A stretch of DNA of 60,289 nucleotides, filler included, from 4 parts of 4 records of this genome joined end to end with filler, not necessarily neighbours in it, one strand, 5' to 3'. Positions 40,652-50,257 are shown, counted from the whole stretch's first letter. Notes: generated by a model not told the origin, from the letters alone. Program-made: numbers and translations.

Positions 40652-42052
40652 TTAAATATTTTGTGCCAATTCCATCGCCTTACGCAATGCAGCCAGTTTG
40701 TTACTCACTTCGTTTAACTCACTCTCCTCATTCGATTTTTCAACCACACCAGCCCCAGCCTGATAGTAAAGTGTATTGTCCTTGCTCATGAAACTTCTGA
40801 TCATGATGGCTTGGTTCACTTCACCGTTAAATCCCATGGCACCAATACAACCTCCGTAAAAACCACGAGCAGTTGGTTCATATTGGTCTATCAGCTCCAT
40901 TGCGCGGTATTTTGGTGCTCCCGATAAAGTTCCTGCGGGAAAGGTATCTCCCATCAATTGGAAAGGGTTGTAATCAGCAGGCAATTCTCCAGATACTTTG
41001 GAGACCAAATGAATCACATGAGAGAAATATTGAACCTCTTTAAAGGTCTCCACTTTAATATTTTGCGCATCTCTGCTTAAATCGTTTCGAGCCAAATCTA
41101 CCAACATCACATGCTCACTTTGCTCTTTTTCATCATTCAATAATTCTTGAGCCAATTGAGCATCTTTTACCGAATCCCCGGTACGCTTGAAAGTTCCTGC
41201 AATAGGATGAATGTAGGCTTTCTGATTTTTGATTTCAATCTGAGCCTCAGGAGATGAACCCATAATTCGATAAGATCCATAATCAAAATAAAACAAATAA
41301 GGCGATGGATTTACCGATCGCAAAGCGCGATACAAGTTAAAATCATCACCTTTATAGTCCTGAGAAAATTGACGAGAAAGTACTATTTGAAATACATCAC
41401 CTCTTCTGCAATGCTGCTTGCCCTTTCTCACCATTTCCATATACGATTGATCATCCATATTCGATTGCTCATCACCTTCTAAATCGAAAGTGAAAGCAGG
41501 TAGATTTCTATTTCTCAACAAATCTGAAACTTCACGTAAGCGTGACTCATCTCCGTTCTTTACCAACTCAATAATCTTCAAGGTATTGTTGAAGTGGTTC
41601 ACCTCAATGATGAAGCGATACAGTGCGTAACGCATTTGTGGAATCCCTGACTGTTTTTTCTCTGTATTGAACTTTAAATCTTCAAAATAGGGAACAGAAT
41701 CATAGGTGGTATAACCAAAAAGAGCATTGGCTTTTGGTACCTTCTCCTTGTCTTCCAAATCAAATTGATTCACAAAGTTTTTCAGTCTGTTCGAAACAAA
41801 TCGCTTGCCTTTTCCTATTGCTTCAATATTTGTTTTATCACCAAAGATTTCCTCAGTAAGTATTCCATCTTTCAGCTGAATGCTAGCAATTGGATCGAGA
41901 GCAATAAATGAACTTGCATTTTCGGGACTATGGTAATCAGAACTTTCCAAAAGAATCGCTCCCGGAAAGCGATCTCTTAATTTCAGATACATACTCACCG
42001 GAGTGATGACATCGGCAAGAAGCTCTTTTTTCAGGTATTTAAATTTTATCAT
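40652..42052 (-). CDS. trpE: Anthranilate synthase component I
   Basis: LLESS, GDVFQIVLS, NPSPYLF, GSSPE, PIAGT, EHVMLVDLARND, FPAGTLSGAPK, RGFYGG. Confidence 0.95.
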   Translation of the reverse strand: MIKFKYLKKELLADVITPVSMYLKLRDRFPGAILLESSDYHSPENASSFIALDPIASIQLKDGILTEEIFGDKTNIEAIGKGKRFVSNRLKNFVNQFDLEDKEKVPKANALFGYTTYDSVPYFEDLKFNTEKKQSGIPQMRYALYRFIIEVNHFNNTLKIIELVKNGDESRLREVSDLLRNRNLPAFTFDLEGDEQSNMDDQSYMEMVRKGKQHCRRGDVFQIVLSRQFSQDYKGDDFNLYRALRSVNPSPYLFYFDYGSYRIMGSSPEAQIEIKNQKAYIHPIAGTFKRTGDSVKDAQLAQELLNDEKEQSEHVMLVDLARNDLSRDAQNIKVETFKEVQYFSHVIHLVSKVSGELPADYNPFQLMGDTFPAGTLSGAPKYRAMELIDQYEPTARGFYGGCIGAMGFNGEVNQAIMIRSFMSKDNTLYYQAGAGVVEKSNEESELNEVSNKLAALRKAMELAQNI

Positions 42053-42081
42053 GGCTAATAGTTATTTTCAAAATAGGGTAT

Positions 42082-42117
42082 AAAAAAAGCGGTCTACTGA
42101 GTTTCAGTAGACCGCTT
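42082..42117 (-). terminator. trp attenuator terminator
   Basis: Minus strand AAGCGGTCTACTGA-AAC-TCAGTAGACCGCTT-TTTTT, 30 nt before trpE. Confidence 0.88.
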
Positions 42118-42140
42118 GCTAGTTCTTATGTATTTTCGAA

Positions 42141-42230
42141 CTAAATTTTGCACATACGGAGGACACTTCTGCTCATGTTATTTGAGAGATTACAGATGTG
42201 CCACCAATATTTGCTATTCAATCCGAACAT
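42141..42230 (-). CDS. trpL: trp operon leader peptide MFGLNSKYWWHICNLSNNMSRSVLRMCKI (29 aa)
   Basis: Hand-translated. Tandem TGG TGG codons, located between a TAnnTTTG promoter and the terminator upstream of trpE. Confidence 0.82.
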   Translation of the reverse strand: MFGLNSKYWWHICNLSNNMSRSVLRMCKI

Positions 42231-42251
42231 TATTTTCCGTTTTTGTCTTTA

Positions 42252-42284
42252 CAAATCTAATGAATAATTTTTCCAATTTCCAAA
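42252..42284 (-). promoter_or_regulatory. Bacteroidota -33/-7 promoter of the trp operon
   Basis: Minus strand TTTG (42281-42284), 21-nt spacer, TAGATTTG (42252-42259). Confidence 0.65.
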
Positions 42285-42617
42285 CCCAATTTTGCAAAAC
42301 CTACCATTTCATCCGAATTAAACTTAGCTCAATGTATTGATTTTACTGTACATTCAAGGCAATGTTATTTTTTTGTAAAATCATTATTTTACAAGTTTCA
42401 TATCAGTATAAAATATATAAAAAACACCTGATCTAATGAGGGGTGTGATTTTTGAAAATAGCATTTTTACCATCCTACCATCTCAGATTAGCACCTATTC
42501 TAATTATTTTTTTTATAAATATTCCGAACACCCTCTTAAACCCCATGTCTACTGAGAATTCAGATTCTAAATAAAAACTTCTCAAACGTTAACATTACAT
42601 TAATGTTAAAAAAGAAA

Positions 42618-42648
42618 TTTGCTGGTTAAGAAATAATTCATACATTTG
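42618..42648 (+). promoter_or_regulatory. Bacteroidota -33/-7 promoter of the aro/tyr operon
   Basis: TTTG (42618-42621), 19-nt spacer, TACATTTG (42641-42648). Confidence 0.7.
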
Positions 42649-42674
42649 GAACAGAATTAACGCACAAAACAGCG

Positions 42675-42743
42675 ATGAATACAGTAACTACATACATTTC
42701 TAACTTTTATTATTTCTGGTTTTACTTTTATCCAAACAGATAA
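42675..42743 (+). CDS. Aromatic leader peptide 1, MNTVTTYISNFYYFWFYFYPNR (22 aa)
   Basis: Hand-translated. Nine consecutive aromatic codons (4 Phe, 4 Tyr, 1 Trp), followed by an antiterminator and a terminator. Confidence 0.85.
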   Translation: MNTVTTYISNFYYFWFYFYPNR

Positions 42744-42783
42744 CGGCAAGAATTGATATGTAAGGAAACGAACAAAATAAATC

Positions 42784-42818
42784 AAAAGGTCTTGCCAAAC
42801 AGGTAAGACCTTTTTTTT
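42784..42818 (+). terminator. Attenuator terminator 1
   Basis: AAAAGGTCTTGCC-AAACA-GGTAAGACCTTTTTTTT. Its 5' arm TCTTGCC can alternatively pair with GGCAAGA at 42745-42751. Confidence 0.85.
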
Positions 42819-42832
42819 ATATAAAAAACACT

Positions 42833-42925
42833 ATGAGCAGTACAGCATTCGCATACCGATTTTATTTTTATTATTTCTGGTTTTACACAAATCGGGCGGG
42901 ATGCCTTATACCTAAACTCAAGTAG
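42833..42925 (+). CDS. Aromatic leader peptide 2, MSSTAFAYRFYFYYFWFYTNRAGCLIPKLK (30 aa)
   Basis: Hand-translated. Nine consecutive aromatic codons (4 Phe, 4 Tyr, 1 Trp). Shares the exact 21-mer TTTTATTATTTCTGGTTTTAC with leader 1. Confidence 0.85.
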   Translation: MSSTAFAYRFYFYYFWFYTNRAGCLIPKLK

Positions 42926-42933
42926 AAAAGTAT

Positions 42934-42968
42934 AAAAATCCTGCCCATAACGAGCAGGATTTTTTTTT
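42934..42968 (+). terminator. Attenuator terminator 2
   Basis: AAAAATCCTGC-CCATAACGA-GCAGGATTTTTTTTT. Its 5' arm ATCCTGCCC can alternatively pair with GGGCGGGAT at 42894-42902. Confidence 0.85.
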
Positions 42969-43012
42969 GATATTAACCACAACCGAAACCAAAATTTTTA
43001 ACAAAAAATAAA

Positions 43013-44167
43013 ATGATTCAACCCGCAAACAGAACCCAGGGAGTTAAGGAGTACTATTTCTCAGTTAAGCTGAAAGAAATAGCGCGCCTTAACGAGGGGG
43101 AAGTAAAAGTTCTCAATCTGGGAATAGGTGATCCGGATCTATCTCCTTCGGAAGATACATGGAACTCATTGAAAGAAGCATGTGTTCATCCAAAGAGTCA
43201 CGGATATCAAAGTTATCAGGGAATTCCAGCCTTACGTGAAGGTTTTTCAAAATGGTACAAGACGTATTTCGATGTGGAAATCAATCCAGCAAATGAAGTA
43301 CTTCCATTAATGGGCTCGAAGGAAGGTATCATGATCACTTCATTGGCATATTTAAACGAAGGCGACGAAGTATTAATTCCTGATCCATCCTACCCGACTT
43401 ATAAATCGGTGACCAATTTGTTGGGTGGTAAAATTGTTACTTACTCTTTAAATGAAGAGCAAAAATGGCAACCAGATCTGGAAGCTTTGGAACAAAGAGA
43501 CCTAAGTAAGGTAAAAATGATGTGGATCAATTATCCACACATGCCAACCGGAGCGAGAGCTAGCAGAGAATTATTGGAAAGAATTGTAGCCTTTGGTAAA
43601 AAGCACAACATTCTGATAGTAAATGATAATCCTTACAGTTTCATACTGAACGATGAACCTATGAGTATCATGAACATTGAAGGAGCTAAAGATTGTTGCT
43701 TGGAACTAAATTCGTTAAGCAAATCGCACAATATGCCGGGTTGGAGAGTTGGAATGATTTGCGGAAGTGCTAAAATGTTGGAACCGGTGTTAAAAGTAAA
43801 AACCAATATGGACTCAGGCATGTTTTATCCGGTTCAACAGGCAGCCATCAAAGCTTTAAATCAGGATAAATCTTGGTACGAAAGCATCAATAAGGTTTAC
43901 AAAAGCAGAAGAGAATTGGTTTTTAAGCTAATGGATTTAATAGACTGTAAACCGAGTGAAGACCAGAGTGGCATGTTTGTTTGGGCTGCCATTCCTGAAA
44001 AGTACAAAGATTGTTACGAGCTAAGTGATGATATTCTAAACAAAACGAAAGTGTTTATCACGCCTGGAGGAATTTTTGGCGAACAAGGATTAAAGTATAT
44101 CAGGGTTTCTCTTTGTAGTAGTGAAGCCGTACTCGAAGAAGCAATAGAAAGAATTAAAAGAATGTAA
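43013..44167 (+). CDS. PLP-dependent class I/II aminotransferase (aromatic/prephenate aminotransferase by context; DapL-like)
   Basis: LNLGIGDPD, LMGSKEG, NYPHMPTG, NDNPY, SLSKSHNMPGWRVG. First gene of the tyr/aro operon. Confidence 0.82.
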   Translation: MIQPANRTQGVKEYYFSVKLKEIARLNEGEVKVLNLGIGDPDLSPSEDTWNSLKEACVHPKSHGYQSYQGIPALREGFSKWYKTYFDVEINPANEVLPLMGSKEGIMITSLAYLNEGDEVLIPDPSYPTYKSVTNLLGGKIVTYSLNEEQKWQPDLEALEQRDLSKVKMMWINYPHMPTGARASRELLERIVAFGKKHNILIVNDNPYSFILNDEPMSIMNIEGAKDCCLELNSLSKSHNMPGWRVGMICGSAKMLEPVLKVKTNMDSGMFYPVQQAAIKALNQDKSWYESINKVYKSRRELVFKLMDLIDCKPSEDQSGMFVWAAIPEKYKDCYELSDDILNKTKVFITPGGIFGEQGLKYIRVSLCSSEAVLEEAIERIKRM

Positions 44168-44236
44168 CAAGCCTCAAGCTACAAGTAACAAGAAAACAAA
44201 ATATTTTCGCTCTTGAAACTTGAAGCATGGAACTTG
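44168..44236. repeat. Inverted pair of 7-bp-periodic arrays between aminotransferase and tyrA
   Basis: CAAG at 44168/44175/44182/44189; CTTG or CATG at 44212/44219/44226/44233. Confidence 0.7.
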
Positions 44237-44256
44237 ACGCTATAAATAAAATAACA

Positions 44257-45153
44257 ATGATAGTATCAGTAATAGGACTAGGTTTGATAGGAGGATCGAT
44301 TGCTCTTGATTTAAAGAAAAATGGATTCGCTGATAAGGTGATTGGAGTTGACAACAACCCAATGCATGCTCATACTGCAAAAAAAATGGGTTTAGCTGAT
44401 GAGATTCAGGATTTGAAAACCGCAGTTACATCATCACATTTGGTGATATTAGCTGTTCCTGTAAATGCCTGTATCCATAGCTTACCTGAAGTTATGGATC
44501 TAATTGATCAACAAATTGTAACCGACTTGGGTTCTACTAAAGAGCAGCTGATCAAAACCATAGCCAATCATCCCAAAAGAAAGCATTTTGTGCCAGCCCA
44601 TCCTATGGCGGGAACAGAATTCTCGGGACCGCAGGCAGCTCACTCAGGATTATTCGATGGGAAATGTTCCATCATCTGTAATCCTGAAGATTCGAATAAA
44701 GAAGCAGTAGATATTGTAACCGATATGTTTCATGCACTTAACATGAGATGCGTGTATATGGATGCAGAAGTCCACGATAGACAGACAGCATATGTTTCGC
44801 ACCTGTCGCACATTAGTGCTTTTGCATTATCTTTAACAGTTCTGCACAAAGAGAAGAAAGACAAACACATTTTTGAACTGGCAAGTGGAGGTTTCGACTC
44901 AACAGTTCGTTTGGCAAAGAGTTCCGCAGAAATGTGGACTCCTATCTTTCATCAGAACAAGAAAAATGTAGGTAAAGTATTGCAGAAATATATTGATAGC
45001 CTTCAACAGTTTAAAGATTTGATTGAAAATGATGATCACGAAGGGGTTGATAATTTAATTAATGAAGCAAATGGTATCAGAAGAGTTTTGGATCAAAAAG
45101 AAAGAAACGAACTGGAAACTCTAAAGAACGCGAAAAAAATAAGAAGGGCTTAG
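44257..45153 (+). CDS. tyrA: Prephenate dehydrogenase
   Basis: VIGLGLIGGS, TDLGSTK, HPMAGTE, HD..AYVSHLSH, GGFDSTVRLAKSSAEMW. Confidence 0.9.
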   Translation: MIVSVIGLGLIGGSIALDLKKNGFADKVIGVDNNPMHAHTAKKMGLADEIQDLKTAVTSSHLVILAVPVNACIHSLPEVMDLIDQQIVTDLGSTKEQLIKTIANHPKRKHFVPAHPMAGTEFSGPQAAHSGLFDGKCSIICNPEDSNKEAVDIVTDMFHALNMRCVYMDAEVHDRQTAYVSHLSHISAFALSLTVLHKEKKDKHIFELASGGFDSTVRLAKSSAEMWTPIFHQNKKNVGKVLQKYIDSLQQFKDLIENDDHEGVDNLINEANGIRRVLDQKERNELETLKNAKKIRRA

Positions 45154-45269
45154 ATCAAAAGGAGAAAGCAATAAGAACCAATCTCCAAGTATCAAAACTC
45201 AAGAAAAAACATAAAAACCAAATAAACCAAATTTTTAATCACTCGACAAAGAGTAAATAAGATTGTAAC

Positions 45270-46358
45270 ATGAGCAAAGAATTAAATATAGCAGATCTAA
45301 GTAGCTGGTCAATCGAAAATGTAGACAGACCTCTAATCATAGGTGGACCATGTAGCGCTGAAACAGAAGAGCAAGTTCTGGAAACTGCCAGAGGAATTAA
45401 AGCAGCCGGAATTCCTATTTTCCGTGCTGGCATCTGGAAACCACGTACTCGTCCGAACAGTTTCGAAGGAATTGGTGCACAAGGACTAATTTGGTTGCAA
45501 AAAGTAAAGGCTGAAACCGGAATGTTAACTGCAACTGAGGTTGCCAATGCAAAGCATGTAGAGTTGGCACTTGGTGCTGGTGTTGACATTCTTTGGATTG
45601 GAGCAAGAACCACCGTTAATCCTTTTGCTGTTCAGGAAATTGCTGATGCACTTAGAGGAAAAGATATTCCTGTTTTAGTAAAAAATCCGATCAACCCGGA
45701 TTTGGAACTTTGGATTGGTGCCATTGAACGATTAAATGCAGTTGGTATCACCAAATTGGCTGCCATTCATCGTGGATTCTCAACTTACCAAAAACTGAAG
45801 TACAGAAACGATCCTCAGTGGCAAATTCCAATTGAAATGAAACGTAGATTGCCTAATTTGCCAATGTTCTGCGATCCTAGTCATATTACTGGAGACAGAA
45901 GTCTTTTAGACGAGGTGACACAAAAGTCAATGGATTTGAATTACGAAGGTTTAATCATTGAATCACACTGCAATCCAACAGAGGCATGGAGTGATGCAAA
46001 ACAACAGTTAACGCCTAAGTCACTTGAAGAACTTTTAGCTAACTTAGTACTTCGTGATCCGGAAGCTGACAATGAGGTAATCAATAATACATTGGGAGAA
46101 TTGAGACACTTAATTGACGATTTCGATCAGAAATTATTGGAATTGTTGGAAAACAGAATGCAGGTTGCCAAAACAATCGGACATTACAAAAAAGAAAACA
46201 ACATTACAGTATTACAAAATAAACGTTGGGGAAATATTCTTGAAAAAAGCCTTGAGATAGGAAAAAAGAAAGGATTCAGTGAGCAATTTATCAATAGCTT
46301 GTTCAAAGCAATTCACCAGGAATCAATCAACCAACAGGAAGATATAATGAACGCATAA
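45270..46358 (+). CDS. Bifunctional DAHP synthase (I-beta type) / C-terminal chorismate mutase
   Basis: GGPCSAE, RAGIWKPRTRPNSFEG, WIGART, CDPSH. C-terminal LR..ID..D..LL.LL..R....IG.YK AroQ domain. Confidence 0.9.
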   Translation: MSKELNIADLSSWSIENVDRPLIIGGPCSAETEEQVLETARGIKAAGIPIFRAGIWKPRTRPNSFEGIGAQGLIWLQKVKAETGMLTATEVANAKHVELALGAGVDILWIGARTTVNPFAVQEIADALRGKDIPVLVKNPINPDLELWIGAIERLNAVGITKLAAIHRGFSTYQKLKYRNDPQWQIPIEMKRRLPNLPMFCDPSHITGDRSLLDEVTQKSMDLNYEGLIIESHCNPTEAWSDAKQQLTPKSLEELLANLVLRDPEADNEVINNTLGELRHLIDDFDQKLLELLENRMQVAKTIGHYKKENNITVLQNKRWGNILEKSLEIGKKKGFSEQFINSLFKAIHQESINQQEDIMNA

Positions 46359-46372
46359 GAACAGGAACAATG

Positions 46373-46430
46373 GATATGGGATTCGAGATCAATTCTCCAA
46401 TCTCATATCTATAATCTGACATCTAAATCT
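46373..46430. repeat. 7-bp-periodic arrays before aroB
   Basis: GAT at 46373/46380/46387; ATCT at 46400/46407/46414/46421. Confidence 0.65.
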
Positions 46431-46437
46431 CTTAAGA

Positions 46438-47496
46438 ATGAAAAGCATACACATCGAAAATCAGAACAGTACCATCTTAATTGGTGAATCCTATCAAAAT
46501 TGTAAAAAGTATTTACCGGAGAAAAAATGTTTCCTGATTTGTGATGAAAATATATATCAACACTATTCTGATTTCATCCATCAATTCGATTATATCGTAA
46601 TGGGTTGTGGTGAAGGCATTAAAACATGGTCATCTGTAGAGATGATTGCAGAAAAATTGCTTGACATGGGTGCCGATAGAAACAGTTTTTTGCTTGGAAT
46701 GGGTGGCGGACTGGTGAGTGATGTAACTGGTTTTGTTGCTTCTATTTTTATGAGAGGATTAGAGTTTGGCTTTATTTCCAGTTCCTTATTATCACAAGTT
46801 GATGCCAGTGTTGGAGGCAAAAATGGAATCAATTTCGGAAAACTAAAAAACATGATTGGCGTTTTTAATCCGCCTAAATTTGTGATTTGTGATCCGGTTC
46901 TACTTCAAACACTTCCAAAAAGAGAAGTTCGCAGCGGATTTGGAGAGGTCATCAAACATGCCTTTATCAAAGATGAAAATCTGTTTCAATTTTTAAAAGC
47001 AAACAGAGAAGCTCTTCTGAATTTGGACCCTGATTTAATGGAAGATCTGATTTATCGAGCAGTTTCAATCAAAACCAATGTGGTTGAAAGTGATCCTTTT
47101 GAAAAAGGAGAACGAAAGAAATTGAATTTCGGTCACACCATTGGTCATGCCATTGAGAACAACTCTGATTTAACACACGGAGAAGCAATATCTGTTGGAA
47201 TGATAATGGCCACCAAACTTTCAGAAAGTATGTGTGCATTATCAGAAGCTGACTCTAAAGAAATTCGAGACATGTTGGAAAGTTTTGAATTGCCTGTAAG
47301 TACAGAAGTTACGGCAGAAACCATTAACGAATATTTGATTAAAGACAAAAAGAAAAATCGTTCCTCTATCGATTTCATCCTTCTGAACCAAATTGGAGAG
47401 GCATGTATAAAAACCATTCCAATTGAAGAACTAAAAACCAAAGTGATTCGCCTTTGTGCCGATCAAAAAAACAAGCCAATAACCACAAAACCATGA
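46438..47496 (+). CDS. aroB: 3-dehydroquinate synthase
   Basis: GEGIK, GGGLVSDVTGF, QVDASVGGKNGIN, LNFGHTIGHAIE, HGEAISVG, DKK. Confidence 0.95.
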   Translation: MKSIHIENQNSTILIGESYQNCKKYLPEKKCFLICDENIYQHYSDFIHQFDYIVMGCGEGIKTWSSVEMIAEKLLDMGADRNSFLLGMGGGLVSDVTGFVASIFMRGLEFGFISSSLLSQVDASVGGKNGINFGKLKNMIGVFNPPKFVICDPVLLQTLPKREVRSGFGEVIKHAFIKDENLFQFLKANREALLNLDPDLMEDLIYRAVSIKTNVVESDPFEKGERKKLNFGHTIGHAIENNSDLTHGEAISVGMIMATKLSESMCALSEADSKEIRDMLESFELPVSTEVTAETINEYLIKDKKKNRSSIDFILLNQIGEACIKTIPIEELKTKVIRLCADQKNKPITTKP

Positions 47497-48770
47497 GAGT
47501 ACGAATTCAATCCTCAAAAATAAACGGAAACCTCACTCCTCCCAGCTCCAAAAGCATGATGCAAAGAGCCTTGGCTGCAGCAGCTCTAAGTAAGGGAACT
47601 ACCATTATTCACAATCCTTGCAAATGCGAAGACGCTGATGCGGCAACAGGAATCATTAATAAGATGGGTGCTGAGGTCAGCAACGAAAATAACACATTAC
47701 GAATAAGTAATAAACAATCATCTTCACCTTCAAAAGTAATGGTTGGAGAATCTGGGCTTTCTTTGAGAATGTTCTCCCCGATTCTGGCATTAAATCCTGA
47801 ACCAGTTGAAATCACCGGAAGAGGCAGCATATTAAAAAGACCTGTTCATAACATTTTGGAGGGACTTGAACATCTGGGCATTCAATTCGAAAATCCTGGT
47901 AAAGGATTGCTCCCTTTCAGTCTAAAAGGTGGATACAAAGAAAATATCGCGACCATTGATGGATCGTTAGGTTCACAGTTTTTGACTGGATTGCTAATGG
48001 CACTTCCGTGCAGAAAGGAAGATACAGTATTAGAAGTAAAGAATCTAAAAAGCATTCCTTACATCAATATGACCATTGATCTGTTAAAAGAATTCGGCAT
48101 TGAGATTGAACATGAAGAATACAAAACCTTCCGAATTAAGGGCAATCAGGAATACAAAGCAGATGAATACACAATTGAAGCCGATTGGAGTTCGGCAGCA
48201 CCACTGCTAGTTGCCGGTGCCCTAAAAGGAAAGGTTACTTTGAATCATTTGAATCGATATTCATATCAGGCTGACATCGCAATTTTGGATGCATTAAAAA
48301 AATGTGGCGCTTCTATTCACTGGGAGAAAGATAGCTTAACTGTTCAGAAAAAAGGCTTGAACAGTTTTGAATTTAATGCCACACATTGTCCGGATTTGTT
48401 TCCACCTTTGGTTGCACTGGCGGTTCATTGCAATGGAGAAAGCAGAATAAAAGGAGTCCACCGATTGGAACACAAGGAGAGCAATCGAGGCATTGTATTG
48501 CAGAAAGAGTTTGGTAAAATTGGTGTTCCTATTCGAATTGAAGGAGACGAAATGGTAATTCCGGGAGGTAGAGTGCGCGGTGGTTTAACCAATAGCAATA
48601 ATGATCACAGAATTGCAATGGCATTAGCTGTAACTGCTATAGCCTCAAAATATCCAATAGAAATTGGTCAGCACGACTGTGTTGCAAAATCTTATCCTGA
48701 TTTCTTTACCGATTTAAGAAAATTAGGAGCTGGAATAGCTGAATTCTATTTCAAAAGTCAATTCGTTTAA
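47493..48770 (+). CDS. aroA: EPSP synthase (3-phosphoshikimate 1-carboxyvinyltransferase)
   Basis: PSSKS, GESGLSLR, SQFLTGLL, CPDL.P, KESNR, DHRIAMA, KSYPDF. ATGA overlap with the aroB stop. Confidence 0.95.
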   Translation: MRVRIQSSKINGNLTPPSSKSMMQRALAAAALSKGTTIIHNPCKCEDADAATGIINKMGAEVSNENNTLRISNKQSSSPSKVMVGESGLSLRMFSPILALNPEPVEITGRGSILKRPVHNILEGLEHLGIQFENPGKGLLPFSLKGGYKENIATIDGSLGSQFLTGLLMALPCRKEDTVLEVKNLKSIPYINMTIDLLKEFGIEIEHEEYKTFRIKGNQEYKADEYTIEADWSSAAPLLVAGALKGKVTLNHLNRYSYQADIAILDALKKCGASIHWEKDSLTVQKKGLNSFEFNATHCPDLFPPLVALAVHCNGESRIKGVHRLEHKESNRGIVLQKEFGKIGVPIRIEGDEMVIPGGRVRGGLTNSNNDHRIAMALAVTAIASKYPIEIGQHDCVAKSYPDFFTDLRKLGAGIAEFYFKSQFV

Positions 48771-48782
48771 ATACAGGAATAA

Positions 48783-49220
48783 ATGATAATAGTAAGTGCA
48801 TGTCTGGCGGGAATCAATTGCCGTTACGATGGAAATGACAATTTAATTCCTGAAATTAAAGAGCTCGTTCTAAGCGGAAAAGCAATTGCTCTTTGCCCGG
48901 AAGAATTAGGCGGATTGCCTACTCCACGTGTTTCCTGTGAAATTTGTAATGGTAAAGTTCTTAACAAATCGAACGAAGATGTTACCGAAGCTTTTCAAGT
49001 GGGAGCCGAAAAGGTATTGGCAATAGCCAAAATTTTAGATACCAAAACTGCCATTTTAAAATCAAACAGTCCATCATGTGGATATGGAATGATTTACGAT
49101 GGAACATTTTCGGGAAACAAAACCAAAGGCAATGGCTTAACAGCAGAATTGTTAGCAAGTAATGAAATTCAAATAAAAAATGAAGAGAATTATCACTCTT
49201 TAAATAACAAACAAGAGTAA
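48783..49220 (+). CDS. DUF523-family (TudS/thiouracil desulfidase-like) protein
   Basis: VSACLAGINCRYDG, CPEELGGLPTPR, ILKSNSPSCG. Confidence 0.85.
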   Translation: MIIVSACLAGINCRYDGNDNLIPEIKELVLSGKAIALCPEELGGLPTPRVSCEICNGKVLNKSNEDVTEAFQVGAEKVLAIAKILDTKTAILKSNSPSCGYGMIYDGTFSGNKTKGNGLTAELLASNEIQIKNEENYHSLNNKQE

Positions 49221-49273
49221 ACATTAGCTATTTTTACTTGAAACTAATAGCTAGCTACTAATAAGAATTATAC

Positions 49274-50257
49274 ATGAACAATTTCGGAAGAATTTTCAGA
49301 CTAAGCATATTTGGTGAATCGCACGGAAAAGGCGTAGGTGTTACTATCGACGGTTGTCCTGCGGGAATATCACTTACAGAGGAAGATTTAATGCAGGATT
49401 TAAGTCGCAGGAAAGCGGGAGCTCGTGGTACTACGCCAAGAATCGAAAAAGATCTGCCTGCCATATTAAGCGGAACTTTTGAAGGAAAAACAACTGGTGC
49501 TCCTTTAATTATCTTGTTTCGTAACAAGAATACCAAATCAAAAGATTACAGCAATTTATTGGATAGTCCTCGTCCTGGTCATGCCGATTTTGTAGCACAA
49601 CACAAGTTTGGAAAAAATAACGATTATACGGGCGGTGGACATTTCTCGGGACGAATCACCTTAGGAATAGTTGCTGCAGGAGTTGTTGCCAAAAGAATAT
49701 TAGGTGATGTTGCCATTGATGCGAAACTAACAGAAATTGGTGGCAGAACCGATTTTGATGCTGCCATAGAAGAGGCTTTGCTTGAACATGACTCTATTGG
49801 AGGAATCGTAGAATGTAAGGCTAACAATTTACCAATTGGCTATGGAGAACCATTTTTCGACTCTGTTGAATCTATGATTTCTCATATGATTTTTGCCATT
49901 CCTGCAACCAAAGGAATTGAATTTGGATCTGGCTTTGCCGCTGCACAAATGAAAGGATCAGAACACAACGATAATTTTATTGATGAAACAGGTAAAACCG
50001 AAACCAATCACGCAGGTGGTATCAATGGTGGAATCACAAACGGAAACGAATTGGTGTTCCGTGTGGCAATCAAACCGACCTCATCGATTGGAAAGCCACA
50101 GGATACCATGAATTTTGCAAAAGGCGAAGTAGAAAGTCTGTTGATTGAAGGACGACACGATGCATGTATCGCATTGCGTATTCCGGTAATCATAGAAGCT
50201 GCTGCTGCCATTGCTTTGGCTGATTTAAAGTTGTTAGATCAAGCAAGAAGACATTAG
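49274..50257 (+). CDS. aroC: Chorismate synthase
   Basis: FGESHG, RPGHAD, GGGHFSGR, NHAGGINGGITNG, KPTSSI, GRHDAC. Confidence 0.96.
   Translation: MNNFGRIFRLSIFGESHGKGVGVTIDGCPAGISLTEEDLMQDLSRRKAGARGTTPRIEKDLPAILSGTFEGKTTGAPLIILFRNKNTKSKDYSNLLDSPRPGHADFVAQHKFGKNNDYTGGGHFSGRITLGIVAAGVVAKRILGDVAIDAKLTEIGGRTDFDAAIEEALLEHDSIGGIVECKANNLPIGYGEPFFDSVESMISHMIFAIPATKGIEFGSGFAAAQMKGSEHNDNFIDETGKTETNHAGGINGGITNGNELVFRVAIKPTSSIGKPQDTMNFAKGEVESLLIEGRHDACIALRIPVIIEAAAAIALADLKLLDQARRH

Follow-up and report, generated by a model that had tools for sequence, protein, structure and literature searches.

A putative two-stage aromatic amino acid attenuator ahead of a shikimate/tyrosine operon in the Marinifilum clade

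Layout of the leader region

The stretch of DNA analysed here (the window: 60,289 nt, filler included, from four parts of four records of one genome joined end to end) carries an operon for the common aromatic pathway and the tyrosine branch. Its first gene encodes an aminotransferase whose best relative (98% identity) comes from an uncultured Marinifilum sp. The 960-nt spacer between the divergent trpE gene and this operon holds, on the + strand, a pair of short open reading frames (ORFs) rich in Phe, Tyr and Trp codons, each followed by a hairpin with a T-tract. The order is promoter motif, leader ORF 1, terminator 1, leader ORF 2, terminator 2, operon, and we treat each ORF with its hairpin as one candidate attenuator unit. 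In the list that follows, positions are those of the window, and the segments of each unit are numbered so that 1:2 is the anti-antiterminator, 2:3 the antiterminator and 3:4 the terminator.

42618-42648, + strand: Bacteroidota-type promoter-like element, TTTG (42618-42621), a 19-nt spacer and TACATTTG (42641-42648)
42675-42743, + strand: leader ORF 1, 22 codons, translation MNTVTTYISNFYYFWFYFYPNR
42689-42762, + strand: unit 1 anti-antiterminator (1:2), 42689-42701 with 42749-42762, from the minimum free energy (MFE) fold
42745-42796, + strand: unit 1 antiterminator, GGCAAGA (42745-42751) with TCTTGCC (42790-42796), from the nascent-RNA fold
42784-42818, + strand: terminator 1, 13-bp stem 42784-42796 / 42802-42814, T8 tract 42811-42818
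42833-42925, + strand: leader ORF 2, 30 codons, translation MSSTAFAYRFYFYYFWFYTNRAGCLIPKLK
42845-42904, + strand: unit 2 1:2 pairing, enclosing the aromatic run, 42845-42862 with 42889-42904, from folding
42894-42946, + strand: unit 2 antiterminator, GGGCGGGAT (42894-42902) with ATCCTGCCC (42938-42946), from folding
42934-42968, + strand: terminator 2, 11-bp stem 42934-42944 / 42954-42964, T9 tract 42960-42968

An initial annotation of this region had described it as a tandem double attenuator, and all its sequence statements hold on rechecking the ORFs, runs, hairpins, pairings and spacing. Translation gives the nine consecutive aromatic codons that it had reported for each leader, FYYFWFYFY at 42705-42731 in leader ORF 1 and FYFYYFWFY at 42860-42886 in leader ORF 2, each with four Phe, four Tyr and one Trp. 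The leader 2 ATG lies, as described, 14 nt past the last T of the first T-tract. The exact 21-nt core said to be common to both runs (42705-42725 = 42866-42886) is also there and sits in a 46-nt direct repeat of 76% identity; given the identical peptide core, an identical DNA core is fairly likely because Phe and Tyr have two codons each and Trp one. The overall pattern exceeds chance, since a search of the 60-kb window in six frames gives only three runs of at least five F/Y/W residues, both nine-residue runs being the leaders, and a terminator scan of the 1.4-kb region returned 5 sites against 0.8 expected from shuffles. (That scan entered terminator 2 on the opposite strand.)

We take TAnnTTTG with an upstream TTTG to be the Bacteroidota promoter consensus. 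TACATTTG is the sole + strand TAnnTTTG between 42053 and 43012 (from the end of trpE to the operon ATG), and transcription would probably start a few bases 3' of it. Both TTTG and TACATTTG are kept in 17 of the 18 sequences of the Marinifilum clade considered below, the exception being locus L128. The claim that a single TAnnTTTG promoter precedes both units thus withstood the motif scan, which found no second copy up to the operon ATG. The initial annotation had added that a separate promoter between the units would make them independent of each other; no TAnnTTTG occurs there on the + strand. Such independence, through a second promoter or through processing, would mean that the units do not act in series, and we regard it as very improbable. 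One promoter consensus was scanned, and in L128 as much as 100 nt separate the first terminator from the next ATG, which leaves this alternative some room. In the window, however, the corresponding gap is 14 nt, and among 29 tandem loci 28 have a hairpin-to-ATG gap of 9-31 nt, in which a promoter would find no place (in the remaining one, L098, the ORF call overlaps the hairpin). The promoter scan gave no sigma-70-like site on the + strand at 42481-42967, although its model is uninformative for Bacteroidota, returning 7 sites against 5.7 expected.

Alternative pairings in the two units

The two units differ in how the leader ORF lies relative to the antiterminator. Leader ORF 1 ends soon after its run: the stop codon (42741) comes three codons past the last aromatic codon, and GGCAAGA, which is segment 2, begins 2 nt after it. 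Leader ORF 2 continues for 12 more codons past its run and reads across its segment 2. We refer to these as the short-tail and the long-tail architecture, respectively. The antiterminator pairings that had been proposed from inspection could both be located, GGCAAGA/TCTTGCC being complementary at 42745-42751 / 42790-42796 and GGGCGGGAT/ATCCTGCCC pairing with one G-U pair.

Unit 1 folded alone adopts the long-range 1:2 pairing plus the terminator (-35.1 kcal/mol, z = -4.8). In an RNA ending at 42800, where the 3' arm of the terminator is not yet made, GGCAAGA:UCUUGCC forms together with an added inner helix (42753-42761 / 42777-42785). A ribosome footprint at the stop codon abolishes this antiterminator in the nascent RNA, as no more than 2 nt separate segment 2 from the stop. 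Unit 2 folded alone likewise shows the 1:2 pairing around the run plus the terminator. With a footprint at A-site 42860 or 42869 the MFE structure of the whole unit turns into GGGCGGGAU:AUCCUGCCC and the terminator is lost; without a ribosome, or with the footprint on the last codons of the run or on the stop, the terminator forms. Folding with ribosome-masked segments therefore reproduced the switch expected from the initial annotation, in unit 1 in nascent RNA only.

Conservation in the Marinifilum clade

The clade set comprised the window and 17 distinct loci with 72-98% aminotransferase identity, for which 400 nt of upstream sequence were aligned. The two ORFs with their aromatic runs and the two hairpins are present in 18/18 sequences, and each run retains exactly one Trp codon throughout. 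(At a hairpin cut-off of -10 kcal/mol two of the loci score as single units, their second hairpins reaching -8.9 and -8.4.) Over the 18 sequences 97.3% of cells are paired in terminator 1, with four pairs changed on both sides, and 94.8% in terminator 2, with two such pairs. The antiterminators are kept equally well, at 97.6% for unit 1 and 98.1% for unit 2, the latter with G-U to A-U changes. Shifting the 3' partner by 1-3 columns lowers pairing to 32-50%.

The most telling single observation comes from L128, the locus at 72% identity. In its unit 1, an A-to-G change in segments 2 and 4 goes together with U to C in segment 3, giving GGCAGG (segment 2), CCTGCC (segment 3) and GGCAGG (segment 4), by which both alternative pairings are kept. 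A series of three units seems to be present in the same genome: three aromatic leader-plus-terminator units occupy L128:2647-3349 on the - strand (positions -602 to -1, counted from the aminotransferase ATG). The only TAnnTTTG within 700 nt stands at -602 and is followed by the additional unit, MKRFSYSYFFYFFTAKQ with a hairpin and T-tract.

Could one unit be the working attenuator and the other a decaying duplicate or neutral passenger? The 21-nt exact core and the 46-nt repeat are what a recent duplication would leave, and one unit suffices in many relatives (93 single-unit loci in the survey below). Against this stand the intact ORFs, runs, terminators and antiterminators of both units in all 18 sequences down to 72% protein identity, the compensatory changes in both terminators, and the occurrence of two different architectures in the same order across tandem loci, which is unexpected of a recent duplicate. 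We consider this explanation highly unlikely.

Fixed order of the two architectures

The order was counted in 30 tandem loci, found with a looser hairpin cut-off of -8 kcal/mol. A short-tail unit comes first and a long-tail unit last in 28 of them (the exceptions are L106 and L109). In the upstream unit the stop lies 2-4 codons past the run, three in nearly all, with the antiterminator strand after it; in the last unit the ORF continues for 6-24 codons, over its antiterminator strand. The units are thus not simple duplicates but two different architectures in a fixed order, and since this order is conserved the window's pair is not merely a recent duplicate despite its 21-nt core. Single units in named loci outside Marinifilum, mostly Flavobacteriales, are long-tail in 62/68 cases; those in other Bacteroidales divide into 14 long-tail and 11 short-tail. 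Complementarity between the spacer and the 5' arm of the terminator beats 95% of 200 shuffles in 32 of the 37 units of 18 tandem loci (six of the 18 clade sequences plus all 12 others).

The constant order raises another explanation, in which the units are serial but non-redundant: the short-tail and the long-tail unit would each respond to its own degree or kind of translational stress, so that there would be two thresholds in place of a simple squared response. The folding results fit, as unit 1 switches only kinetically whereas unit 2 switches at equilibrium and for early-run stalls only. The identical codon composition of the two runs in the window (F4 Y4 W1) speaks against it. On balance we think it possible though rather unlikely.

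Distribution of single and tandem units

Counting single against double leaders upstream of orthologous aminotransferases, as had been suggested, gave the picture below, with 136 distinct loci in all. To count as a unit, an ORF had to begin with ATG, measure no more than 70 codons, have five or more aromatic residues out of 7, and lie 15-130 nt ahead of a hairpin (-10 kcal/mol or better) with a T-tract. Six rows were dropped, namely four duplicate loci and L081 and L082, whose genomes were already present via another query; 18 plus 5 further orthologous loci lie outside the survey.

Marinifilum clade, 18 loci: three units, 1; two units, 15; one unit, 2; none, 0; short upstream DNA, 0
Further members sampled from the same GTDB family, 13 loci: three, 0; two, 5; one, 5; none, 2; short upstream DNA, 1
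Order sample, 29 loci: three, 0; two, 6; one, 20; none, 2; short upstream DNA, 1
Named matches outside Marinifilum, mostly Flavobacteriales, 76 loci: three, 0; two, 1; one, 68; none, 6; short upstream DNA, 1

The doubled layout recurs in other Bacteroidales (11 of 42 loci in the family and order samples). By the unit rule it was found in one of the 76 named loci outside Marinifilum, L007 from a Saprospiraceae metagenome-assembled genome, and not in the other 75, mostly Flavobacteriales. Tandem counts are lower bounds; in L135 and L093, for example, a second aromatic ORF is present without a hairpin acceptable under the rule. Mapped on a FastTree phylogeny of 135 aminotransferases, the tandem state requires 8-9 changes, or at least seven if starred branches alone are counted. 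It is clustered, the Marinifilum clade forming one 100*-supported group of 18, with two more groups of four tandems; as the tree is unrooted, gains and losses of the state are indistinguishable.

In most loci outside Marinifilum the leader lies about 1 kb upstream of the aminotransferase. Another gene, probably pheA, would come first there, as in the Bacteroides gene order given in a table of PMC1173090.

Flavobacterium loci (L006, L012, L013, L026, L036, L039, L047, L064 and others) have a second short ORF, starting MQYFFW or MHYFFW, that overlaps the start of the main aromatic leader at about -1150 to -1070 and has no terminator of its own. It may only reflect conserved promoter sequence.

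Leaders of pheA and the trp operon

For genome-wide context we used a relative with 98% aminotransferase identity (G001). Its pheA gene is solitary and is preceded by MINNTHTKRFFFFSM and a terminator, then by MQTVFFHSFFFSFFFFGNEKDRILAV and a second terminator. Phe-only tandem leaders, short-tail then long-tail, stand before pheA in five of six related genomes (L143, L144, L145, L147, L148); the sixth, L146, has only the second Phe-only unit. The two-unit design reported by the initial annotation is therefore present at the aromatic operon but is special neither to that operon nor to the genus, as the pheA tandem and the other lineages show. The divergent trp operon of the window has a single Trp leader, and a WW or WWW leader precedes trpE in 17 of the 18 clade loci. 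At E up to 10 the trp leader had no match to the Rfam family Bacteroid-trp. The features concerned are:

G001:C2:652167-655706 (L143), reverse strand: pheA tandem, about 280 nt upstream of pheA
42259-42252, - strand: TAnnTTTG-type motif of the trp operon, TAGATTTG, from the motif scan
42230-42141, - strand: trp leader ORF, 29 codons, MFGLNSKYWWHICNLSNNMSRSVLRMCKI, with YWW
42117-42087, - strand: trp terminator, 14 bp, then T7, just before trpE
42052-40652, - strand: trpE
40648-40079, - strand: trpG

Codon content thus tracks the pathway: Trp codons precede trp, Phe codons precede pheA, and the operon of the common pathway with the Tyr branch has all three. We regard this match as providing the strongest functional argument short of experiment that the leaders would act as amino acid sensors. 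A search of G001 for runs of His codons found them only inside long ORFs and gave no his leader; His was the one other amino acid searched.

A further alternative is that the short ORFs encode functional aromatic-rich micro-peptides, or that the terminated RNAs serve as small RNAs, neither being a sensor. Terminated leader RNAs would indeed accumulate, and there is some conservation at the peptide ends, for example RAGCLIP in leader 2. That stretch, however, encodes the antiterminator strand, so its conservation is explained by RNA pairing. Outside the run the peptides vary freely between lineages, whereas the run, the terminator and the antiterminator complementarity persist, and the codon content follows the downstream pathway. 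We give this alternative very little credence.

Proposed mechanism

The region is probably a two-stage, ribosome-mediated transcription attenuator behind one promoter, to judge from the sequence comparisons and folding models. Each unit has an ORF with cognate codons in the leader (upstream of tyrA, the DAHP synthase/chorismate mutase gene and aro genes), an intrinsic terminator between that ORF and the genes, and an antiterminator formed between a segment just 3' of the run and the terminator's 5' arm. The conservation in 18/18 sequences, the compensatory changes, the constraint folding and the single promoter motif support the view of the initial annotation that two complete attenuators stand in series.

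In unit 1, when charged Phe-, Tyr- or Trp-tRNA is scarce, a ribosome translating leader 1 would stall within 42705-42731; it would then cover segment 1 and free GGCAAGA to pair with TCTTGCC, blocking terminator 1. With a good supply the ribosome would reach the stop (42741) and cover GGCAAGA, and hairpin 42784-42814 with its U8 would end the transcript; without translation, the 1:2 pairing should likewise give termination. Transcripts that pass terminator 1 would expose leader 2, 14 nt on, in which segment 2 is within the ORF. Here a stall early in the run would free GGGCGGGAU to pair with AUCCUGCCC and allow read-through, and an unhindered ribosome would pass over segment 2 while terminator 2 (42934-42964 plus U9) forms. 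Expression of the operon would accordingly require two successive read-through decisions made from the same signals. Such an arrangement could sense all three amino acids and multiply repression, and two units should lower basal expression and steepen the response. In this scheme we infer translation of the leader ORFs, the transcription start site, the efficiency of termination and the quantitative benefit of two units.

Several points weigh against this scheme. The promoter call relies on the consensus taken above, and promoters of other types could lie between the units. The 1:2 helices are kept less well than the other pairings (77-87% of cells paired over the 18 sequences: 87% for unit 1, 83% and 77% for the two helices of unit 2) and show few informative changes. 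None of 500 shuffles attains the observed paired fraction, a control that overstates significance because the sequences are closely related. In full-length unit 1 the MFE structure retains the terminator even with a stalled ribosome; since the terminator always wins there, read-through rests on the usual kinetic argument. In unit 2 late-run stalls mask segment 2 and favour termination, so that only part of the run would act. The RNA matches are contigs, which cannot show 3' ends or strand: a 248-nt contig of X1, whose RNA origin is a guess, runs through terminator 2 from 42855 to 43101, and marine-sediment RNA contigs cover the aminotransferase gene only. Lastly, the mechanism presupposes that transcription and translation are coupled tightly enough in Bacteroidota.

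Bacteroidota make little use of Shine-Dalgarno sequences. Tentatively, serial leader-peptide attenuators might be an old, selected Bacteroidota design and not a local duplication, in which a unit with the ribosome parked at its stop codon is placed ahead of a unit that is read over. The different kinetic windows of the two would give an ultrasensitive or two-threshold response, with three units in L128 and the same plan at pheA, and might offset a looser transcription-translation coupling.

Relation to known systems

Leader-peptide attenuation is a textbook mechanism described as one unit per operon, with pheL-pheA, trpL, hisL and thrL as the enterobacterial examples. The leader studied here resembles these in its ORFs with product codons, in an intrinsic terminator that precedes the first structural gene and in three predicted alternative pairings, the 1:2 one tentative. 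It differs in its mixed Phe/Tyr/Trp run, its two complete units in series, its Bacteroidota host, its other promoter type and the sparse Shine-Dalgarno use of that host's phylum. Both units align end to end with the Rfam family Phe_leader (RF01859), at 31.1 bits (42845-42967) and 30.8 bits (42693-42817) and E about 0.007, and neither reaches the gathering score of 55 bits; the region would function like this family but is not a member of it. Other sub-threshold matches are Thr_leader and Trp_leader, and there is no match at gathering level in the leader region. With E values of up to 10 allowed, 41900-43200 gave 26 matches, none of them to a riboswitch or T-box family, and on this ground a tandem riboswitch or T-box was ruled out.

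A comparative study of attenuators was reportedly made by Vitreschak and colleagues in 2004. For Bacteroides thetaiotaomicron, Table 7 of PMC1173090 gives one putative attenuator for pheA > hisHb > aroA-aroQ > tyrA, and the available text of PMC7366714 describes some long 5' untranslated regions that hold short ORFs reminiscent of leader peptides. In Flavobacterium psychrophilum, leader-peptide-like 5' elements lacking Rfam hits precede pheA and hisG, according to the available part of PMC9723704. The present system shares the operon family and the leader-peptide principle with these predictions (PMC1173090, PMC9723704, as far as the parts consulted go). It differs in having two units, in L128 three, where those parts of the two papers give a single attenuator without its anatomy. 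A single F/Y(/W) leader plus terminator is also what 68 of the 76 non-Marinifilum loci of our survey have.

The mgtCBR leader of Salmonella has been called 'tandem attenuators': its ORFs mgtM and mgtP sense ATP and proline and act additively, and its authors state that, unlike tandem riboswitches, it lacks two intrinsic terminators (PMC3641672, available text). Both leaders contain two short ORFs (translated in mgtCBR), each with alternative stem-loops controlling elongation; unlike those described in that text of PMC3641672, the units here are both F4 Y4 W1, respond in principle to the same amino acids and have a terminator each. An mgtCBR-type tandem was rejected on these two grounds, the same make-up of the runs and the two intrinsic terminators.

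Tandem T-boxes exist as well, and erm genes have translational attenuators with two leader peptides. The erm systems share with the present one the two leader peptides in one regulatory leader; there drug-induced stalling controls translation, whereas here amino acid supply would control transcription termination. Tandem riboswitches are cited in the available parts of PMC2864571 and PMC3641672, and the accessible text of bioRxiv 10.1101/003335 reports greater signal sensitivity for synthetic pT181 attenuators placed in tandem. Like tandem riboswitches, T-boxes and pT181 attenuators, the aromatic leader would place two terminator-based switches in series; those tandems sense by aptamer, by tRNA-binding RNA or by antisense RNA, and here a translating ribosome would be the sensor. 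In the literature searched we found no description of serial leader-peptide attenuators for an amino acid operon, so that the novelty claimed initially holds to that extent, though an earlier mention is possible. What appears to be undescribed is the conserved arrangement, serial and heterotypic, of an otherwise classical mechanism.

A conserved two-unit, occasionally three-unit, form would mean that evolution uses ribosome-sensed switches serially, as it does riboswitches and T-boxes, and the fixed order of architectures together with the recurrence at pheA and in several Bacteroidales lineages adds to its significance. It could provide a natural system for studying how serial termination decisions shape a dose-response, and bears on transcription-translation coupling in Bacteroidota, which initiate translation differently from E. 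coli. Unannotated ORFs and terminators of this kind may explain long 5' leaders in Bacteroidota transcriptomes, and may yield amino-acid-responsive parts for engineering gut and marine Bacteroidota.

Gene content of the operon

The regulated operon has seven genes (43013-50257, + strand, Pfam matches) and in the window does not include pheA. The genes from the aminotransferase to aroC probably form one transcription unit, judging from the short intergenic gaps:

43013-44167, + strand: class I/II aminotransferase, first operon gene, ATG at 43013
44227-45153, + strand: tyrA, prephenate dehydrogenase
45270-46358, + strand: DAHP synthase/chorismate mutase fusion
46438-47496, + strand: aroB
47454-48770, + strand: aroA
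48783-49220, + strand: PF04463 gene
49274-50257, + strand: aroC

G001 has a second DAHP synthase/chorismate mutase paralog (L142 5716-6807, - strand; G001:C1), a solitary gene, 54% identical. Neither an aromatic leader nor a terminator lies upstream of it in G001, and it is possibly an unattenuated isoenzyme. The PF04463 gene, which belongs to the 2-thiouracil desulfurase family (145 aa), lies within the shikimate operon, flanked by aroA and aroC.

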